Shown in pieces: positions 911 to 6,242 of a stretch of DNA of 64,000 nt. A program made the translations under genes and the position numbers. The stretch lies in the sequence record PX246731.1. One strand, given 5' to 3'. This stretch comes from a phage. The stretch's first letter is position 1; every line of letters starts with the position of its first letter. Below the pieces are notes generated by a model. The model was not told the origin of the DNA. It saw nothing but the letters and a program-made list of their open reading frames with translations, and searched no databases.

Positions 911-1240
911 ATGAAAACTTTACTTAAAGGTATTGCAGTAGCTGCACTGATAGCTTTGGCTCCAAATGCACAAGCAATTGAGCCAGAACCAATTCTGGAA
1001 GGTGCTCAGGCTTATCTGGATGACACTCGCGATGCGTTCGGACAAGGATTCTTCATGGGCAGTATGATCTCTTACATCGAGAGCACAAATAACTGTGTTC
1101 CGGATGGTATGAAGTATTCCGACATTCTACCTAAGATTGCCAAAGTAGTTATTTATGATTCTGCAATCCTCAAATTGAAGAATACATCTCAAATTGTCGT
1201 GTACTCCGTACACAAGGCATATCCCTGCACTAAATCTTAA
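911..1240 (+). CDS. small secreted/periplasmic protein (signal peptide)
   Basis: N-terminus MKTLLKGIAVAALIALAPNAQA has a basic n-region, hydrophobic core and AxA cleavage motif. Confidence 0.45.
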   Translation: MKTLLKGIAVAALIALAPNAQAIEPEPILEGAQAYLDDTRDAFGQGFFMGSMISYIESTNNCVPDGMKYSDILPKIAKVVIYDSAILKLKNTSQIVVYSVHKAYPCTKS

Positions 1241-1274
1241 TCAGTAATCCCATTAGCTTTAGGAGAGTAAGTAA

Positions 1275-1588
1275 ATGGCAAGCATCGACTCCTTGACTGT
1301 ATGTAATTCACGTCAAGCTCGTAACTTTATTATCCGTGCCCTGAAAGCAGGTAACGTACCGTTCCTGACTTCATCACCTGGCATGGGTAAATCTGCAATC
1401 ATTCGTTCTATTGCAGAAGAATTTGGTATGAAGTTAATTGACCACCGTCTATCTACTTCTGCCCCGGAAGACCTGTCTGGCTTACCTTTCCGTAATGGTG
1501 ACCGTGCAGAGTTTATTCCATTCGCTGACTTATTCCCCATTGAGGGAGACGAAGTACCAGAAGGCTATAATGGCTGGCTCTTATTCCT
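1275..1588 (+). CDS. MoxR-like AAA+ ATPase, exon 1 of 3 (join 1275..1588, 2471..2804, 3671..4075)
   Basis: RBS aggag upstream of ATG 1275. Walker A SSPGMGKS. The ORF ends LLFL just before an in-frame stop; the Walker B continuation DEFN is found 882 nt downstream in frame. Confidence 0.7.
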
Positions 1589-2470
1589 TAACTGACGGGG
1601 CTTCATGAGAGCAATCTCATGTCGAAAGTTACCTAAACAGGGAACCTCTTCTAATATGGTTGGCTCAGGTGTATACTTGAGTTTTAATCAATTGGAGACA
1701 ATCCTGTGCTAAATAATGAAATTTGGAAAGATGTGCCCGACTTACCGTATGAAGTTTCCAACTTTGGTGTAGTACGCCGAAAAGAAGGAAAGTATAAATA
1801 CAAAAATAGGACACATATAAAACCGTATCTTAATAACAAAGGGTACTACTGCGTGAACCTGTACATGAATAGTAAAGTGTACAAATATCAAGTTCATCGT
1901 CTGGTAGGCATAGCCTTTGTACCAAACCCCAATAACTATCCAGTTATTAATCATATAGATGGAAACCCTCTTAATAACCACGAGAGTAACCTGGAATGGT
2001 GTACCCAGTCCCAAAATATTAAACATGCTTGGGATACTGGATTATTGTCAAACAGACATGCCAACGCTAGTAACAAAAATCGTGGAGGCTCCTCCAAATA
2101 CGTAGGTGTATCCTGGAGTGAGCAAAGACAAAGATGGTGTGCCCATATAAGGGTTAACAAGAAATCTATTGGTTTGGGACGTTACAAAACAGAGGAAGAG
2201 GCTGCCAAAGCCTATGACTCCTACGTAACTAACAACAATCTTACACAGATTGGGTACAGTACCAATTTCATTTAAACGCCAAACGACTATCGAAAACACA
2301 CAGAAATGTGGAAGTGAGTAGAGTAGGGTGCAAGCCAATGGCACTCGAAACGGTAACAGCCCTAGCAATAGGGCTTTGATATAGTCTCCTCTGCATGGTG
2401 ACATGCAGCAGTCAGTATTCACTGAGTGTACTGACGGCATTAGTAGTTGCGAACTAATGTGAAGATAATG
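1589..2470 (+). mobile_element. Group I intron 1 (self-splicing intron carrying an HNH homing endonuclease ORF)
   Basis: 5' exon ends in U (1588); intron ends in G (2470). GNRA hairpin catgaga-gcaa-tctcatg at 1604-1621. Core 2276-2470 contains gatatagtct (group IA S-element-like) and hairpin ctgcatg-gtga-catgcag at 2391-2408. Strong similarity with covariation to the second element at 2805-3670. Confidence 0.7.
1706..2275 (+). CDS. HNH homing endonuclease (NUMOD4 / HNH_3-type, intron-encoded)
   Basis: GTG start at 1706 with ggag RBS. N-terminal EIWKDV..YEVSNFGVV (NUMOD4-like), HRLVGIAF and NHIDGNPLNNHESNLEW (HNH), C-terminal AP2-like YVGVSW..W.A.I. Lies inside intron 1. Confidence 0.75.
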   Translation: MLNNEIWKDVPDLPYEVSNFGVVRRKEGKYKYKNRTHIKPYLNNKGYYCVNLYMNSKVYKYQVHRLVGIAFVPNPNNYPVINHIDGNPLNNHESNLEWCTQSQNIKHAWDTGLLSNRHANASNKNRGGSSKYVGVSWSEQRQRWCAHIRVNKKSIGLGRYKTEEEAAKAYDSYVTNNNLTQIGYSTNFI

Positions 2471-2804
2471 CGACGAGTTCAACTCAGCTAAGAAAGAAGT
2501 AGTAGCTGCTGCATACAAGCTGATTCTCGACCGTATGACTGGTCAGAAAAAGCTTCATCCTAACGTGATGATTGTCTGTGCTGGTAACAAAGCTACCGAC
2601 CGTGCCATTGTTAACCCATTGGGTACTGCAATGCAGTCTCGTGTGGTTCACTTTGAAATGGAACTTAACTTCGACATCTTTGTTGAAGACGTAATGATTC
2701 CTCAGCAATGGGATGAACGTCTGGTTGCATTCTTACATGCTAACCCAGGTTACCTGCATGACTTCGACCCAGCACACAAGAACAAAACGTTCTGTTGCCC
2801 ACGT
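2471..2804 (+). CDS. MoxR-like AAA+ ATPase, exon 2 of 3
   Basis: Begins DEFNSAKKEVVAAAYKLILDR, completing Walker B (LLFL|DEFN). Contains sensor-1-like VMIVCAGN. Proposed end at 2804 (U, codon boundary), 15 nt upstream of the intron 2 GNRA hairpin, the same spacing as in intron 1. Confidence 0.6.
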
Positions 2805-3670
2805 AAACACACTGCGATTCAGGGGAGTAATTCCCTGTCTAAAGCTGCCTAAAACGGGAAACACTTTACATTCTGTTGCCTAAAGGTAATATGTAAAAGT
2901 CAATCCGTTACTAAATTGGGAGTCAGCATGAGTGAGATTTGGAAAGATGTTGTTGAATTTGAAGGTTTATACCAAGTATCTAATACAGGTAAATACCGTA
3001 AGCATGAGTCACGCCAATCTGTAAATAAGTACAGAGAAGTTAAGCCCCTTATCAGGGCACTTAACAAGAACCGATTAGGTTATCTGTATGCCTCTATGTA
3101 CAAAGATGGGAAGACTCATAAGAAAACTATTCATCAACTCGTTTGTGCAGCATTTAAACCAGGCTTTAAGTATGGTGATCCTGTTAACCACTTAGATGGT
3201 AATAAGGAGAATAACCATGAAGACAACCTGGAACCATGCACCGCACAAGACAATAATCTCCATGCTCATAAAACTGGGCTAGCCCCTAAACCAGGTAAGT
3301 CTGTGTACCACAATGTGCACATACGTCGTAGTAAGTATAAAGATAAAATTTACACTTATTACGAAGCCAAGGTTAAAGATAATTACAAGGTAGTATTCTA
3401 CAAACAGTTTAAAGATGAGGTAGCTGCTGCTAAAGCCGTAGATGCCTATCTGGACTCAATTGGGGATACTAGACGTAAACGTAATTTCTGACTTCCATAA
3501 ATGTCCAACGACTATCCCGGGGAGGGAGTAGAGCATAAGCCAATGATGCTCGAAATGGTAGCCACCCTACAGGTAATGCTAAGGGTGTTGATATAGTCTA
3601 GTCTGCATGGTGACATGCAGCAGTTCATAAGAGAACGGGCGTAGTCTTGCGAACTACGTCGAATATCACG
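2805..3670 (+). mobile_element. Group I intron 2 (self-splicing intron carrying an HNH homing endonuclease ORF)
   Basis: GNRA hairpin cagggga-gtaa-ttccctg at 2820-2837. Core 3520-3670 shares gatatagtct and the ctgcatg-gtga-catgcag hairpin (3603-3620) with intron 1. 3'-terminal hairpin cgtagt/actacg (3640-3658) covaries with intron 1 attagt/actaat (2439-2458). Terminal G at 3670, 12 nt after that hairpin in both introns. Confidence 0.65.
2928..3491 (+). CDS. HNH homing endonuclease (NUMOD4 / HNH_3-type, intron-encoded)
   Basis: ATG 2928 with gggag RBS (ORF track starts at TTG 2916). SEIWKDVVEFEGLYQVSNTG (NUMOD4-like), HQLVCAAF and NHLDGNKENNHEDNLE (HNH). Distinct sequence from the intron 1 endonuclease. 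Confidence 0.75.
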   Translation: MSEIWKDVVEFEGLYQVSNTGKYRKHESRQSVNKYREVKPLIRALNKNRLGYLYASMYKDGKTHKKTIHQLVCAAFKPGFKYGDPVNHLDGNKENNHEDNLEPCTAQDNNLHAHKTGLAPKPGKSVYHNVHIRRSKYKDKIYTYYEAKVKDNYKVVFYKQFKDEVAAAKAVDAYLDSIGDTRRKRNF

Positions 3671-4075
3671 ACCTGGGACTTTGTTAATAAAGACCTCAAG
3701 AACCTACCGGAAGGTGCTCTGCCTGATGAGGATTCTATCTACTATGCAGGACACGTTACTGCTGGTAAGGCTACAGAGTTTGTTCAGTTTACACAGGTGT
3801 ACAATCGTATCATTACGATTGAGAAAGTAGTCAAAGACCCACTGGGCTGTGCACTACCGGAAGATAACAACCTGTGCTGGGCTACTGTTAACCATCTGGC
3901 TAACAAAACTACTGAAGAGAACTTCGCTGATGTTCTTCAGTACATTGAACGCTTTAAAACGTTCACCCATAAGATTCTGTACTTCCGTACAGTAGGCAAT
4001 GCATTACCAGATCTTCAGGCTACCCCTGAATGGCGTAAGGCTGCTGCTAATATCTCTCGCTATATTCACGGATAA
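3671..4075 (+). CDS. MoxR-like AAA+ ATPase, exon 3 of 3
   Basis: Frame is open from 3614; first exon codon proposed at 3671 (acc, TWDFVNKDL...) immediately after the intron terminal G. Stop at 4073-4075. The three exons sum to 1053 nt (350 aa). Confidence 0.6.
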   Translation, partial: TWDFVNKDLKNLPEGALPDEDSIYYAGHVTAGKATEFVQFTQVYNRIITIEKVVKDPLGCALPEDNNLCWATVNHLANKTTEENFADVLQYIERFKTFTHKILYFRTVGNALPDLQATPEWRKAAANISRYIHG

Positions 4076-4082
4076 TCACAAC

Positions 4083-5258
4083 ATGAACCAATTTCCTCAG
4101 CACACACTTAGTGATGAACAACTCATGCGTGAGTATGACCGTATTCAGGCTCAGGCCTTCCTGGGCAAGTCTGCTGCGTTCTTTGGTTCATTGCTGTGTA
4201 GTCTTAAGTTCTCATGGAAACGTGAGGATTGCCCCACTGCATGTACTGATGGGATAGAACTCCATTTCAACCCAGACTTCTTTATCTGGATGTGTCCAGA
4301 TGCAAGAGAAACAGTATTAATGCATGAACTATGGCATGTAGCATATCTACATGACATCCGTCGTGGAAGCCGTGACCCGGAAATCTGGAACCAGGCTTGT
4401 GACCACTTCATTAACCTTCAGTTAGAAGAAGATGGTTACAAGTTCACTGGCATTGACAAAGGCATTTGCAAAGACCCTCAATATAAAGGATGGGTCGAAG
4501 AAGACATCTACGATGACCTGATGAAGAACCCTCAGAAAAGGCAGAAGCCGTCAGGGGGTGCTGGAGCAGGTCTTGCTGGCGACATGAAATCCCCCACTTC
4601 GGGGCAGTCCCAGGGTGCTGTTGTCAACAACGTAGTACGTGCAATGCAGAGCCAAAAGATGGCTGGTGGAACAATGCCCGGTAAGGGTGCTGGTCGTATG
4701 GAAGAGGTTATTACCCAATTCCTTAAACCAGTGGTTCCATGGCAGGAAGTTCTCATGAACTTCTTTACCGACATTGATGACACACATTATACGTGGGCCA
4801 GACCTAACCGTCGTTACACTGACATCTATCTACCTTCACTGGAAGATGATGAAGGTCGTTTACGCCACTTAGCCTACTTTGAGGATGTGTCTGGTTCTAT
4901 TAGTAGTGCTGACTCTCTGCGTTTTAACTCAGAGGTCGCCTATGTTAAGAGCCAGTTTAATCCTAAGAAGATGACCCTAATTACCTTCGACGATACTATT
5001 CAAGAAGAGATAGACATCACTGAAGAAGATACTTTTGAAGAGATTAAGATTACTGGTCGTGGTGGTACAAACCTGGAACCAGTACGCGAGTGGATTATTA
5101 AGAATAAGCCAACCGCTGCAATCATATTCTCCGATATGTATGTTCGCCCAATGGAAGAATTGCCATTTGATATCCCTATCATCTGGTGTGTTCTGAATAA
5201 TCCTAATGCTACCGTACCTTTTGGGGAGGTAGTTCATATCCCTAAAGGAATGAAATAA
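4083..5258 (+). CDS. VWA-like domain protein with HExxH metallopeptidase-like N-domain (MoxR partner, DUF2201/COG3864-like)
   Basis: HELWH motif (HExxH) in the N-domain; C-terminal VWA-like region (MTLITFDDT..ITGRGGTN). Sits directly downstream of the MoxR ATPase, the canonical MoxR-VWA arrangement. Start chosen at the first ATG after the exon 3 stop; ORF track shows an upstream extension from 3999. Confidence 0.6.
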   Translation: MNQFPQHTLSDEQLMREYDRIQAQAFLGKSAAFFGSLLCSLKFSWKREDCPTACTDGIELHFNPDFFIWMCPDARETVLMHELWHVAYLHDIRRGSRDPEIWNQACDHFINLQLEEDGYKFTGIDKGICKDPQYKGWVEEDIYDDLMKNPQKRQKPSGGAGAGLAGDMKSPTSGQSQGAVVNNVVRAMQSQKMAGGTMPGKGAGRMEEVITQFLKPVVPWQEVLMNFFTDIDDTHYTWARPNRRYTDIYLPSLEDDEGRLRHLAYFEDVSGSISSADSLRFNSEVAYVKSQFNPKKMTLITFDDTIQEEIDITEEDTFEEIKITGRGGTNLEPVREWIIKNKPTAAIIFSDMYVRPMEELPFDIPIIWCVLNNPNATVPFGEVVHIPKGMK

Positions 5259-5800
5259 TGGAAACACCCATAAAAACCTGTCGCAAGTGTTTGCAGGAGT
5301 TCCCGGCTACGCTTGAGTTCTTTTACAAGAACGCTGGTGGCAAATATGGGGTAACTCCACGGTGCAAATCATGTGTTAATGAGGATAATGCAGCCGGGCA
5401 TGCAAAACGTTTGGCTGCTAATCCAGAAAAGATACGTGCTCAAGCTGCTGCCCGTAGTAAAAAACATTATTACAAAGATTTGGAACAATCGCGTGAACGA
5501 CAGTGTATAGCTCAAAAGAAAGCGAGAAATGATCCCGTAAGGGGAGAACGTATTAAAGCACGTAAACGTGCAAATGGTGCTGGGCTAACACCGGAAGAGA
5601 TACAACAACTCCTCATTAGTCAAGGAGGCGTGTGTGCTATCTGTGGTGATCCACCTACCGATTTAGACCATTGCCATAAAACAGGTAAAGTTAGATTTCT
5701 ACTATGTAAGCATTGCAATAGAGGACTGGGTGCTTTTAAAGATAAGCCAGAACTAATGCGAAAAGCTGCACAACTACTGGAAGACTTCAATGATAATTAA
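5258..5800 (+). CDS. Endonuclease VII-like HNH nuclease (free-standing homing-endonuclease-like)
   Basis: Paired Cys motifs: CRKC..C.SC at the N-terminus and GGVCAICGD..DLDHCHKTGKVRFLLCKHCNRGLGAFKD (Endonuclease_7/HNH-type zinc site). Start overlaps the upstream stop (TAATG). Confidence 0.65.
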   Translation: METPIKTCRKCLQEFPATLEFFYKNAGGKYGVTPRCKSCVNEDNAAGHAKRLAANPEKIRAQAAARSKKHYYKDLEQSRERQCIAQKKARNDPVRGERIKARKRANGAGLTPEEIQQLLISQGGVCAICGDPPTDLDHCHKTGKVRFLLCKHCNRGLGAFKDKPELMRKAAQLLEDFNDN

Positions 5801-6242
5801 CCGTAATCGCTTACTTGAATTGTCTCCAATAAAAAACATGGTTAACTCAAAGCAAACCTTTAATGGTTTTTCTTGGGGATTAACAGAATGCGGATACGAT
5901 ATTCGTATTAAGCAAGATGTGACCATGTTTTTAGGTCGTCGTTTCGTGTTGGCTTCTGCCATAGAAGAATTCGATGTACCTCATAACCTAATGGGACGAG
6001 TACTCAACAAGAGTACCTGGGCCAGAAAGGGTATTGATGCAAGCATGACTACCAATATCGAACCAGGATGGAAAGGTTTCTTGACTCTTGAGCTTCGTTA
6101 TTCGGGAATATTGCCCATTACAATCAAAGCTGGTACTGGTATTGCACAGGTTATCTTCGAAGAGATAGCTGAACATTGTAGTTACAATGGCAAGTATCAG
6201 AACCAGGAAAACCAACCAGTAGCTGCTAGACCTTCAAAATAA
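5790..6242 (+). CDS. dCTP deaminase-like (dUTPase-fold) protein
   Basis: Motifs resemble the dCTP deaminase/dUTPase superfamily: NKSTWARKGI, NIEPGWKGFLTLEL, GIAQVIF. Start is uncertain (internal ATG candidates exist). Confidence 0.45.
   Translation: MIINRNRLLELSPIKNMVNSKQTFNGFSWGLTECGYDIRIKQDVTMFLGRRFVLASAIEEFDVPHNLMGRVLNKSTWARKGIDASMTTNIEPGWKGFLTLELRYSGILPITIKAGTGIAQVIFEEIAEHCSYNGKYQNQENQPVAARPSK

Follow-up and report, generated by a model that had tools for sequence, protein, structure and literature searches.

Two td-like group I introns with putative HNH homing endonuclease genes in the gp24-like ATPase gene of an N4-like phage

The window (the whole 64-kb stretch of phage DNA that was analysed) comes from a Gamaleyavirus, an N4-like coliphage, and carries a gp24-like AAA ATPase gene that is split by two introns into three exons (Table 1). 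The Walker A motif lies in exon 1, the end of which (...LLFL, final base U1588) adjoins the Walker B Asp-Glu, while exon 2 starts with this Walker B sequence (DEFN) and finishes in ...CCPR. The exon reading frame meets a stop codon shortly inside each intron. The spliced translation, on the other hand, is unbroken and yields a 350-aa ATPase with a Pfam AAA score of 27.2 bits (cut-off, 21.2), whereas exon 1 by itself remained at 17.8 bits, below the cut-off. The identity of the exons to intron-less alleles is 94-97%, and the reading frame is kept. Such intron-less alleles occur, for instance, in nithesis and G7C, and the alleles with introns show synonymous changes beside the insertion sites. 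Several database records list the ATPase pieces as separate "ATPase" CDSs. Neither further introns nor tRNAs were found in the window.

Table 1. Coordinates of the exons, introns, endonuclease genes and predicted ribozyme helices in the window, and insertion sites of ATPase introns given as residues of the phage nithesis protein.
Feature	Position	Strand	Remarks
Exon 1, N4 gp24-like AAA ATPase	1275-1588	+	Collinear with the intron-less phage nithesis allele (L003 376-690); Pfam AAA match
Intron 1, td-like IA2 group I, 882 nt	1589-2470	+	Ends set by the empty site of intron-less alleles
HE1, 189 aa, GUG start	1706-2275	+	P6a loop of intron 1; Pfam NUMOD4, HNH_3, AP2
Exon 2, ATPase, 334 nt	2471-2804	+	Collinear with L003 691-1024, 95.8%
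Intron 2, td-like IA2 group I, 866 nt	2805-3670	+	Ends set by the empty site of intron-less alleles
HE2, 187 aa, AUG start	2928-3491	+	P6a loop of intron 2; Pfam NUMOD4, HNH_3
Exon 3, ATPase, starts TWDF	3671-4075	+	Collinear with L003 1024-1428
Intron 1 P1	1585-1588/1597-1600	+	
Intron 1 P2	1604-1610/1615-1621	+	
Intron 1 P3	1628-1633/2352-2357	+	
Intron 1 P4	1637-1642/1702-1707	+	
Intron 1 P5	1647-1655/1691-1698	+	
Intron 1 P6	1708-1709/2278-2279	+	
Intron 1 P6a	1715-1726/2262-2272	+	
Intron 1 P7	2285-2289/2382-2386	+	
Intron 1 P7.1	2297-2310	+	Extended; the position is that of its GAAA hairpin
Intron 1 P7.2	2326-2331/2341-2346	+	
Intron 1 P8	2358-2363/2370-2375	+	
Intron 1 P9	2391-2397/2402-2408	+	
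Intron 1 P9.1	2411-2416/2430-2435	+	
Intron 1 P9.2	2437-2444/2453-2460	+	
Intron 2 P1	2802-2804/2814-2816	+	
Intron 2 P2	2820-2826/2831-2837	+	
Intron 2 P3	2844-2849/3557-3562	+	
Intron 2 P4	2853-2858/2904-2909	+	
Intron 2 P5	2863-2871/2891-2900	+	
Intron 2 P6	2910-2911/3503-3504	+	
Intron 2 P6a	2917-2926/3488-3497	+	
Intron 2 P7	3510-3514/3594-3598	+	
Intron 2 P7.1	3515-3518/3524-3527	+	
Intron 2 P7.2	3531-3536/3546-3551	+	
Intron 2 P8	3563-3568/3582-3587	+	
Intron 2 P9	3603-3609/3614-3620	+	
Intron 2 P9.1	3623-3626/3633-3636	+	
Intron 2 P9.2	3638-3645/3653-3660	+	
Insertion site, first Pollock intron	about 37/38		Approximate
Insertion site, pSb-1, PW8, phi 1, L055	67/68		
Insertion site, intron 1	105/106		
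Insertion site, Pylas, second Pollock intron	119/120		
Insertion site, pYD6-A	215/216		
Insertion site, intron 2, L032	216/217		

The segments that a sequence-only reading of this DNA had proposed for the two introns (1589-1705 plus 2276-2470, and 2805-2927 plus 3492-3670) have the same ends as those derived here from intron-less alleles. For intron 1 the junction could be 1588|2471 or 1589|2472; the former was chosen not from the exon comparison but because a group I intron is expected to end in G. The terminal nucleotide is G in both introns (G2470 and G3670), and the alignments to the covariance model R1 (see below) stop exactly there, within the GAAnAUAAnG tail typical of the family. Presence/absence polymorphism with precise empty sites was seen for the introns: the ATPase gene is uninterrupted in about 95 related phages, phage U1G carries intron 1 only, NAN33P5 carries both, and pSb-1 and PW8 carry a third intron at another site. 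Within the phage collection searched, only the window and NAN33P5 have two introns in one Gamaleyavirus ATPase gene.

To place the introns in a family, we used R1, which was built from relatives with intron 1 left out. The model matched intron 1 with 119.7 bits (2282-2470, E about 1e-30) and intron 2 with 160.2 bits (3507-3670), and nothing else in the window. This agreement is much stronger than expected by chance. It also matched the T4 td (108.9 bits) and nrdB (113.5 bits) introns, the td intron of a T4-like Proteus phage (137 bits) and the DNA polymerase intron of the T7-like Yersinia phage Berlin (122 bits). Since R1 recognizes T4 td and nrdB as well, introns 1 and 2 are td-like IA2 group I introns with an endonuclease ORF in the P6a loop. 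The window thus brings this family, under study since the T4 td intron, two further members and a double-intron allele. The general Rfam model RF00028 found neither intron at its gathering threshold (50 bits) and, at an E-value threshold, scored intron 2 with 32.6 bits (E 7.6e-6) and intron 1 with 18.9 bits, a shortfall explained by the ORF that splits the ribozyme core. When the Berlin intron, which also carries an ORF, was searched in a similar way, it scored only 26.2 bits, and the td-type, pYD6-A and Pylas introns were absent from the listing. The RF00028 alignment was discarded, as it omitted P4-P6 and built a "P3" out of the last part of the endonuclease ORF. Relatives were collected by scanning for the pattern AAGCCAATG...GATATAGTC, which gave many chance matches in coding regions that were filtered by requiring GACTA upstream. 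This sample is biased towards introns with an L7.2 loop of the scanned type, and the T4 td, nrdB, Berlin, Pylas and pYD6-A introns, which do not have that loop, were added separately.

The T4 td intron, an IA2 intron that carries I-TevI, is the archetype among the self-splicing group I introns of phages. Both window introns share with it the helix plan P1-P2-P3-P4-P5-P6-P6a[ORF]-P7-P7.1-P7.2-P3'-P8-P7'-P9-P9.1-P9.2, the conserved joiners UAAA-CGGGG-AA, CAAUCCCGUGCUAAAU, AACGACUA and GAUAUAGUC, an identical P9 hairpin (CUGCAUGGUGACAUGCAG) and an ORF looped out at the equivalent place. The differences lie in the host gene (thymidylate synthase in T4), in the endonuclease (GIY-YIG in I-TevI, NUMOD4-HNH here), in the L7.2 loop, which is shorter in td and lacks AAGCCAAUG there, and, for intron 1, in a longer P9.1 and a P7.1 enlarged with a GNRA hairpin. 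The T4 nrdB (I-TevIII) and Berlin introns are likewise placed in this ribozyme family by their R1 scores, and the former also carries an HNH-type endonuclease, but both occupy other sites in other host genes and the Berlin ORF is annotated as endonuclease VII. More than one endonuclease-bearing IA-type intron per conserved phage gene is also found in Twort orf142 (three introns) and in the DNA polymerase and terminase genes of Bastillevirinae, which differ from the present case in phage family and host gene. There, several introns per gene have been explained as sequential colonisation, and exon skipping has been reported (PMC11878797). In the window, productive skipping from the 5' site of intron 1 to the 3' site of intron 2 was rejected because the loss of the 334 nt of exon 2 would shift the frame.

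The RNA fold was examined in the two introns and across the family. All the elements listed in the sequence-only reading were found in place: gatatagtct at 2378 and 3590; ctgcatggtgacatgcag at 2391-2408 and 3603-3620, and nowhere else in the 64 kb; gtgc-aagccaatg-gcac at 2328 and gcat-aagccaatg-atgc at 3533; agccct/agggct at 2358/2370 and caccct/agggtg at 3563/3582; attagt/actaat at 2439/2453 and cgtagt/actacg at 3640/3653; and catgaga/tctcatg at 1604/1615 and cagggga/ttccctg at 2820/2831. As that reading had held, stems stay paired where the introns differ, and the four helices that it named pair in both. When 63 homologous base pairs in 12 helices were compared, 41 were the same and 22 differed, 18 of them by changes on both sides and four on one side, with none broken; this 22/22 count is a non-independent test, the structure having been partly read from the same two sequences. 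Together with a strong family-wide covariation, these compensatory changes support a conserved fold, as the sequence-only reading had claimed, and make the pair a clean textbook example of compensatory ribozyme evolution.

The covariation was visible in several alignments. On A1, a structure-blind MAFFT alignment of 35 relatives, RNAalifold recovered P7, P7.1, P7.2, P8 and P9, with double changes at 21 of 27 pairs; P9.1 and P9.2 were not called because MAFFT had misaligned both, and they were recovered only in A3, an alignment fitted to the model that therefore leans towards the structure. Across the 62 distinct relatives in A3, 96.3% of the cells were paired (65% when shuffled, 32-45% with slid partners) and 34/39 pairs showed double changes. 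The third alignment (A4, again structure-blind MAFFT) comprised 14 ORF-deleted introns including T4 td, but not nrdB and Berlin, the 5' halves of which were not found by regular expressions. It was 93.7% paired, versus 36-43% with slid partners, and covariation affected 7/7 pairs of P2, 6/6 of the pseudoknot helix P3, 3/6 of P4 and 6/6 of P8, with P7 invariant; the P9.2 of intron 1 is one column out of register in A4, which lowered this helix to 75% paired. The helices P7.1, P7.2, P9.1 and P9.2 exist in both introns, and covariation in the family extends to 4/4, 6/6, 3/4 and 7/7 of their pairs, respectively. The 5' strand of P3 was placed by the conserved flanks AAA-N6-UAAA and the structure-blind MAFFT alignment, a complementarity search being dropped as circular, and the resulting long-range pairing bridges about 650 nt across the ORF. 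Single-sequence folding, which cannot reveal a pseudoknot, was modestly better for the 3' halves than for shuffles (z of -2.0 and -1.8). Taken together, the covariation points to a group I core with P3-P8, the P3/P7 pseudoknot and the P4-P6 domain.

These data bear directly on whether the similarity could come from repeated protein-coding or regulatory sequence flanking free-standing endonuclease genes, with no RNA structure involved. The 3' core of intron 1 is indeed overlapped by a minus-strand 156-aa ORF (2048-2518), but this ORF is spurious, neither core is covered by a plus-strand ORF and both lie outside the endonuclease ORFs. Moreover, substitutions gather in compensating pairs and not at codon third positions, and P3 covaries at all of its pairs across some 650 nt, so that this explanation can practically be dismissed. 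It is also very improbable that the introns are decayed, splicing-dead relics, which would leave the phage with pieces of ATPase or without the protein. Such relics would agree with the two Rfam scores under threshold and with the records that list the ATPase pieces separately, but ORF-carrying td-type and Berlin introns also score low in Rfam, and the R1 score of intron 1 is on a par with those of T4 td and nrdB. Furthermore, all core helices are intact (0/63 pairs broken), the invariant nucleotides of J3/4, J4/5, J6/7, P7 and J8/7 match T4 td, the U at -1, the terminal G and both endonuclease ORFs are preserved, and the exons have remained in frame and close to intron-less alleles.

Both P1 helices are short (3-4 bp) and have a U·G wobble at the 5' splice site: U1588·G1597 in intron 1, with CC/GG and a U·G beyond, and U2804·G2814 in intron 2, with CG/GC. 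P10 was not among the helices identified. The internal guide sequence varies with the exon context, being CCU/GGG in intron 1, CGU/GCG in intron 2, GGGU/GCCU in T4 td and UGCU/GGCA in Pylas. The pre-mRNA would fold into the P1-P9.2 ribozyme, an exogenous guanosine in P7 would attack the phosphate after the wobble U (U1588 or U2804), and the freed 5' exon would then attack after the terminal G (G2470 or G3670), so that the three exons end up in a single ATPase mRNA. Unspliced or excised RNA would serve as the template for translation of the endonucleases. In intron 1, the Shine-Dalgarno sequence of HE1 lies in P5 and its GUG start in P4/P6, and in intron 2 the Shine-Dalgarno sequence of HE2 lies in P6a; the endonuclease start regions are buried in this way within ribozyme helices, which may regulate translation.

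All three Pfam domains of HE1 scored above their cut-offs (NUMOD4 38.9 and HNH_3 33.3 bits), as did the two of HE2 (NUMOD4 35.8 and HNH_3 26.8 bits), the C-terminal region of which aligns to the AP2 domain of HE1. HE1 matched I-HmuI (PDB 1U3E), an HNH homing endonuclease from the DNA polymerase intron of SPO1, over residues 7-120 (E 2e-12) and differs from it in having an AP2 domain as the C-terminal DNA-binding part. The U1G orthologue of HE1 (96% identical) is annotated as "HNH homing endonuclease # Phage intron", and relatives of HE1 and HE2 as "DNA endonuclease I-HmuI". We consider both as putative I-HmuI-like NUMOD4-HNH homing endonucleases. Each may cut intron-less ATPase alleles of co-infecting phages, and the repair would copy the intron in. 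The two proteins, which had been described as quite different, share 34% identity over 184 aa (E 3e-26); they are not unrelated but full-length homologues with the same architecture.

The introns had also been called paralogous in the sequence-only reading. They are homologous members of one family, but that they are true paralogues, that is, that one intron was duplicated in the phage lineage, moved within the gene and diverged fast from its copy, seems quite unlikely. Their location in one gene, the common architecture with NUMOD4-HNH ORFs in P6a and a core identity of 72%, which is among the top 25% of values for the family members sampled (median 61%), would fit a duplication. The blocks that are identical in both are uninformative on this point because they are common to the whole phage IA2 family as its invariant catalytic core, the 18-nt P9 hairpin and the GAUAUAGUC segment being identical even in T4 td. 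Against a duplication, the 3' core of intron 2 has a higher identity to introns in the phage contigs L055 (87%), L017 (79%) and L032 (77%) than to intron 1. Similarly, the closest relatives of HE2 are in L032 (69%), pYD6-A (49%) and Pylas (45%), and HE1 is nearer to its homologues in Vibrio phage phi 1 (45%) and L030 (43%) than to HE2. The L032 endonuclease occupies the same insertion site as HE2 in a host ATPase that is only about 30% identical. Neither in cores nor in endonucleases are introns 1 and 2 each other's closest relatives, and U1G has intron 1 without intron 2. We thus infer that they are homologous elements and not duplicates, and that they reached their sites independently, in line with the independent acquisition that the sequence-only reading had put forward as one of two options for the endonucleases. 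On balance, it is highly probable that this ATPase gene contains two mobile IA2 introns, each with an I-HmuI-type HNH gene in P6a, that arrived independently.

Introns in gp24-like ATPase genes of N4-like phages were already annotated in Klebsiella phage Pylas ("ATPase split by intron"), Pseudoalteromonas phage pYD6-A (a joined CDS), Escherichia phage Pollock, Vibrio phages phi 1, JA-1 and VchO139-I, and Shigella phage pSb-1, and Fouts et al. (2013; PMC3670811) noted an HNH gene that splits the gp24 homologue. These introns share with those in the window the host gene, the ribozyme family (R1 scores of 98-123 bits) and the NUMOD4-HNH type of endonuclease, but differ in their insertion sites. 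The intron 2 and pYD6-A sites both fall within one CPRTW motif, offset by a mere 3 nt; for pYD6-A, the end of exon 1 was set by the in-frame stop and the family 5' splice-site pattern, as tblastn over-extended into the intron. In its P7.1-P7.2 region the pSb-1 intron is similar to intron 1, and in P3'-P8 to intron 2; at the pSb-1 site, L055 combines a ribozyme like that of intron 2 with a different endonuclease. It is an evenly balanced proposition that the ATPase gene is an intron hot spot in Schitoviridae, where a td-like clade would have colonised at least six sites through site-hopping, with the guide re-tuned at each move, and recombinational exchange of modules.

The introns described here are an ordinary example of a known mobile element and leave the current understanding unchanged. 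Their use lies mainly in annotation: what records of this phage group show as three pieces of "ATPase" and two genes for "HNH endonuclease" is a single spliced ATPase gene with two mobile introns. The many sites in one gene, the 3-nt offset and the mosaic introns are of modest interest for the spread of homing introns and, if the hot-spot hypothesis is true, the gene would be a small, naturally occurring model in which to follow the spread of group I introns and their endonucleases to new sites.

Window positions 1200-4200 matched about 100 coliphages of the N4-like genus Gamaleyavirus (Schitoviridae), best of all NAN33P5 (96% over the entire stretch). Most of these relatives aligned as three pieces of about 1250 bp in total, which shows that their ATPase gene is uninterrupted. 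The first exon led to the AAA ATPase family (Pfam), and database records name the protein N4 gp24-like. Group I introns are preceded by U and have G as their last base, and this rule was applied, on top of an alignment with the intron-less phage nithesis (L003), to set the intron ends (see table). The joined exons encoded a continuous protein of 350 aa that aligned over its full length with the nithesis ATPase and scored 27.2 bits against a Pfam AAA cut-off of 21.2, whereas exon 1 alone stayed below it (17.8). Intron 1 interrupts the Walker B motif (between LLFL and DEFN) and intron 2 the conserved CPRTW motif (between CPR and TW). While NAN33P5 carries both introns and U1G only intron 1, pSb-1 and PW8 have neither and bear a third intron after codon 67. 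Mobile introns are recognised by just this combination of exact empty sites and patchy presence in phages that are otherwise near-identical. Synonymous differences were concentrated directly beside the insertion sites (window 1586-1588, 2471-2476 and 2799-2801; pSb-1 locus L002, 1444-1460): CTC GAC and CCA in the window versus CTT GAT and CCT or CCC in intron-less alleles, and SGLP coded AGT GGT CTG CCA in pSb-1 versus TCT GGC TTA CCT in others. This clustering is consistent with co-conversion, or with loss of the site that the endonuclease itself would cut.

Features of the intron-bearing ATPase region and intron sites in related phages (window positions unless nithesis is named; sites are nithesis protein residues onto which exon ends of other phages were mapped)
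Feature	Position	Details
ATPase exons	1275-1588; 2471-2804; 3671-4075	
Intron 1	1589-2470	882 nt
Intron 2	2805-3670	866 nt
Nithesis 301-690	1200-1589	alignment
Nithesis 691-1024	2472-2805	alignment
Nithesis 1024-1550	3671-4200	alignment
Endonuclease HE1	1706-2275	GUG start; NUMOD4, HNH_3 and AP2 above Pfam cut-offs
Endonuclease HE2	2928-3491	NUMOD4, HNH_3 (Pfam)
HE1 Shine-Dalgarno and start region	1691-1709	GGAG (1693-1696) in P5 3' strand; GUG (1706-1708) spans P4' and P6
HE2 Shine-Dalgarno and start region	2917-2930	GGGAG (2918-2922) in P6a 5' strand; opposite P6a strand covers UGA stop
Inserted P7.1 hairpin, intron 1	2297-2310	CACA-GAAA-UGUG
DUF2201/VWA-like gene	4083-5258	downstream of ATPase; metallopeptidase and VWA-like domains (Pfam)
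Endonuclease VII-domain gene	5258-5800	free-standing; recombination endonuclease VII domain
dCTP deaminase/dUTPase-like gene	5790-6242	11-nt overlap with endonuclease VII-domain gene
Terminator-like sequence	481-516	after ORF ending at 434
Site ~37/38		first Pollock intron; approximate, only downstream exon start mapped
Site 67/68		pSb-1, PW8, phi 1, L055
Site 105/106		intron 1
Site 119/120		Pylas, second Pollock intron
Site 215/216		pYD6-A, between CP and RTW
Site 216/217		intron 2, L032

The sequence-only reading had proposed a conserved RNA fold from motifs that were all found where it had placed them; the 18-mer ctgcatggtgacatgcag occurs in the 64 kb at 2391 and 3603 only. Comparison of the two introns with each other and with relatives let us draw the whole group I secondary structure for each. 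Its 5' part comprises P1, P2 (with GNRA loops, GCAA and GUAA), P3, J3/4 (UAAA), P4, J4/5 (AA), P5, J5/4 (CAAU) and P4'; its middle, P6 (2 bp), the internal loop UAAAU, P6a, from which the endonuclease ORF is looped out, P6' and J6/7; and its 3' part, P7 (GACUA/UAGUC), P7.1, P7.2 (loop AAGCCAAUG), P3', P8, J8/7 and P7', followed by P9 (GUGA loop), P9.1, P9.2 (loop UUGCGA) and a tail with the terminal G. Of the 63 pairs in 12 helices that are homologous by position, 41 were identical, 4 differed on one side, 18 on both, and none was broken, although this count of kept differing pairs (22/22) is descriptive because the structure was partly derived from the same two sequences. The four helices for which compensation had been claimed are P2, P7.2, P8 and P9.2, all with pairing kept, and compensation was additionally found in P1, P3, P4, P5, P6 and P9.1. 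P6a differs wholly in sequence (AAUGAAAUUUGG/CCAAUUUCAUU versus UGGGAGUCAG/CUGACUUCCA) but pairs in both introns at the same position. Even near-identical orthologues showed compensatory change in the hairpin that intron 1 carries within P7.1 (CACA-GAAA-UGUG in the window, CGCA-GCAA-UGCG in U1G, CGUA-GUGA-UACG in pSb-1), with a GNRA loop in all three.

The statistical test of the fold rests on relatives, not on the two introns, and there covariation strongly supported it. BLASTN with either 3' core found matches of 70-82% identity in the genomes of hundreds of phages, including T4-like, T7-like, Bacillus, Campylobacter, Vibrio and Pseudomonas phages. IMG/VR, scanned for a sequence pattern, yielded 96 DNA stretches, filtered to 35 sequences of less than 90% mutual identity and aligned with MAFFT. 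From these, RNAalifold, supplied with no structure, predicted P7, P7.1, P7.2, P8 and P9, with at least one double compensatory change in 21 of 27 pairs. A covariance model (R1) was built from 14 relatives, intron 2 included and intron 1 left out; it matched the window exactly twice, at intron 2 (160.2 bits) and intron 1 (119.7 bits), both matches ending at the terminal G. When 62 distinct relatives were aligned to R1, 96.3% of cells were paired; shuffling columns lowered this to 65.4%, and sliding the partners to 32-45%. Double changes were present in 34 of 39 pairs, and none of 500 shuffles reached any observed measure. Since R1 fits this alignment to the structure, a structure-blind MAFFT alignment was also made of 14 full-length, ORF-deleted introns, T4 td among them, in which 93.7% of cells were paired (74.7% shuffled, 36-43% slid). 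Here P2 covaried in 7/7 pairs, and P3, the long-range pseudoknot helix with about 650 nt, including the ORF, between its strands, in 6/6, with 100% paired; P4, the P5 base, P6, P7.2, P8, P9 and P9.2 covaried as well. Read from the sequences, the internal guide varies with its partner exon: CCU/GGG (intron 1, pSb-1, L017, L055, pYD6-A), CGU/GCG (intron 2), UGU/GCA (L023), GGGU/GCCU (T4 td), GCGU/GCGC (td-type Proteus phage intron) and UGCU/GGCA (Pylas, Pollock).

R1 also matched the T4 td (108.9 bits) and nrdB (113.5 bits) introns, both of which are classical, experimentally established self-splicing introns. Further matches were the td intron of a T4-like Proteus phage, at 137 bits, and, at 122 bits, the intron in the DNA polymerase gene of the T7-like Yersinia phage Berlin. 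In its database sequence, T4 td shares with introns 1 and 2 the 5' half UAAACGGGGAA...CAAUCCCGUGCUAAAU, P7, J8/7 and P9, an identical CUGCAUGGUGACAUGCAG hairpin, and an ORF in the P6a loop. On these grounds, both introns of the window belong to the td-like introns of subgroup IA2: P7.1 and P7.2 separate P7 from P3', P9 is followed by the extension P9.1/P9.2, and the ORF sits in P6a. Family membership explains the identical blocks noted earlier: over J8/7-P7-P9, intron 1 agrees with intron 2 at 32/34 positions, and with T4 td at 32/34. Because their core is split by the ORF, introns 1 and 2 score below the threshold of the Rfam group I model RF00028; the Berlin intron (26 bits) and the td-type, pYD6-A and Pylas introns (not listed) fall short too. 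ORF-bearing td-like phage introns in general miss its gathering score, so that standard annotation will miss them. In L023 and L027, an R1-type ribozyme holds a loop ORF without BLASTP similarity to NUMOD4-HNH endonucleases, which suggests ORF swapping within a single ribozyme lineage; that of L023 (N-terminus ...KKIEGIYKITC) may be GIY-YIG-like. At least three R1 matches within a few kb occurred in other viral contigs (L096, 6839-9442; L080-L082, a single IMG/VR contig, 3300011985_000004), showing that clusters of td-like introns are not rare.

The two endonucleases had been called quite different. They are diverged homologues (34% identity) rather than unrelated proteins: the alignment is full-length (E 3e-26), AP2-like C-terminus included. 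HE1 matched the solved structure of I-HmuI (1U3E, E 2e-12), and its AP2 part plant AP2/ERF domains. Both Shine-Dalgarno and start regions lie within predicted ribozyme helices, which suggests that ribozyme folding competes with endonuclease translation and may hold it back. Competition of this kind is described for I-TevI in td.

The gene downstream of the ATPase is of the DUF2201/VWA-like type that usually accompanies ATPases of this kind. In several public records, it goes under the name "HNH endonuclease" (CDS0060 of nithesis, gp37 of Pylas, gp34 of Pollock and gp054 of phi 1), probably a propagated mis-annotation. Upstream, ggcctccctattgaagggaggtcttttttt looks like an intrinsic terminator.

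The introns had also been called paralogous. They are homologous, and in the 3' core they are 72% identical across 147 well-occupied columns (family median 61%, 75th percentile 66%), but neither is the nearest relative of the other: the core of intron 2 is 87% identical to that of L055, 79% to L017 and 77% to L032, and the best non-orthologous matches of intron 1 are pSb-1 and L055 (73% each). Likewise, HE2 is closer to other endonucleases (69% to a partial one in L032, 49% in pYD6-A, 45% in Pylas), and HE1 is closest to those of Vibrio phi 1 (45%) and L030 (43%). The L032 intron occupies exactly the site of intron 2, yet the ATPases of L032 and the window share only about 30% identity. Intron and endonuclease are thus much better conserved than the gene that hosts them, which indicates horizontal transfer. 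Judged by these identities, which support the independent acquisition already suggested, as one option, for the endonuclease ORFs, independent arrival at the two sites is the better reading, and "paralogous" is best understood as two td-like IA2 members that were acquired independently.

Introns are already annotated in this gene elsewhere: GenBank/RefSeq gives an ATPase split by an intron in Pylas and a joined CDS in pYD6-A, and the U1G orthologue of HE1 is annotated "Phage intron". In Vibrio N4-like phages, HNH genes split gp24, DNA polymerase and gp43 homologues, and introns were suggested (Fouts et al. 2013, PMC3670811); a group I intron was reported in td of another N4-like phage (PMC5746245), and several introns per phage gene are well documented (Twort orf142; Bastillevirinae polymerase and terminase genes, PMC11878797). 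Introns 1 and 2 add to the known td-like IA2 family.

This family occupies at least six sites in the Schitoviridae gp24-like ATPase (window 1275-4075; L002, L005, L055, L102-L105, L032). At CPRTW, the pYD6-A intron lies between the P and R codons and intron 2 lies 3 nt further, between R and T (window 2802-2806 versus L102 1355-1361 and 2228); their guides match the respective sites (GGG and GCG), even though the two endonucleases share 49% identity. The pSb-1 intron resembles intron 1 in P7.1 and P7.2 (24/30 and 29/30 positions), whereas in P3'-P8 it agrees with intron 2 at 27/34 positions and with intron 1 at 15/34. Over P7.1-P7.2, the intron of pSb-1/PW8 (L002 1240-1370) shares about 90% identity with intron 1 (window 2272-2350), and over P3'-P8-J8/7 about 86% with intron 2 (window 3537-3606). 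By its sequence it is a mosaic, which suggests recombination between introns, and the gp24-like ATPase gene appears to be a hot spot for introns.
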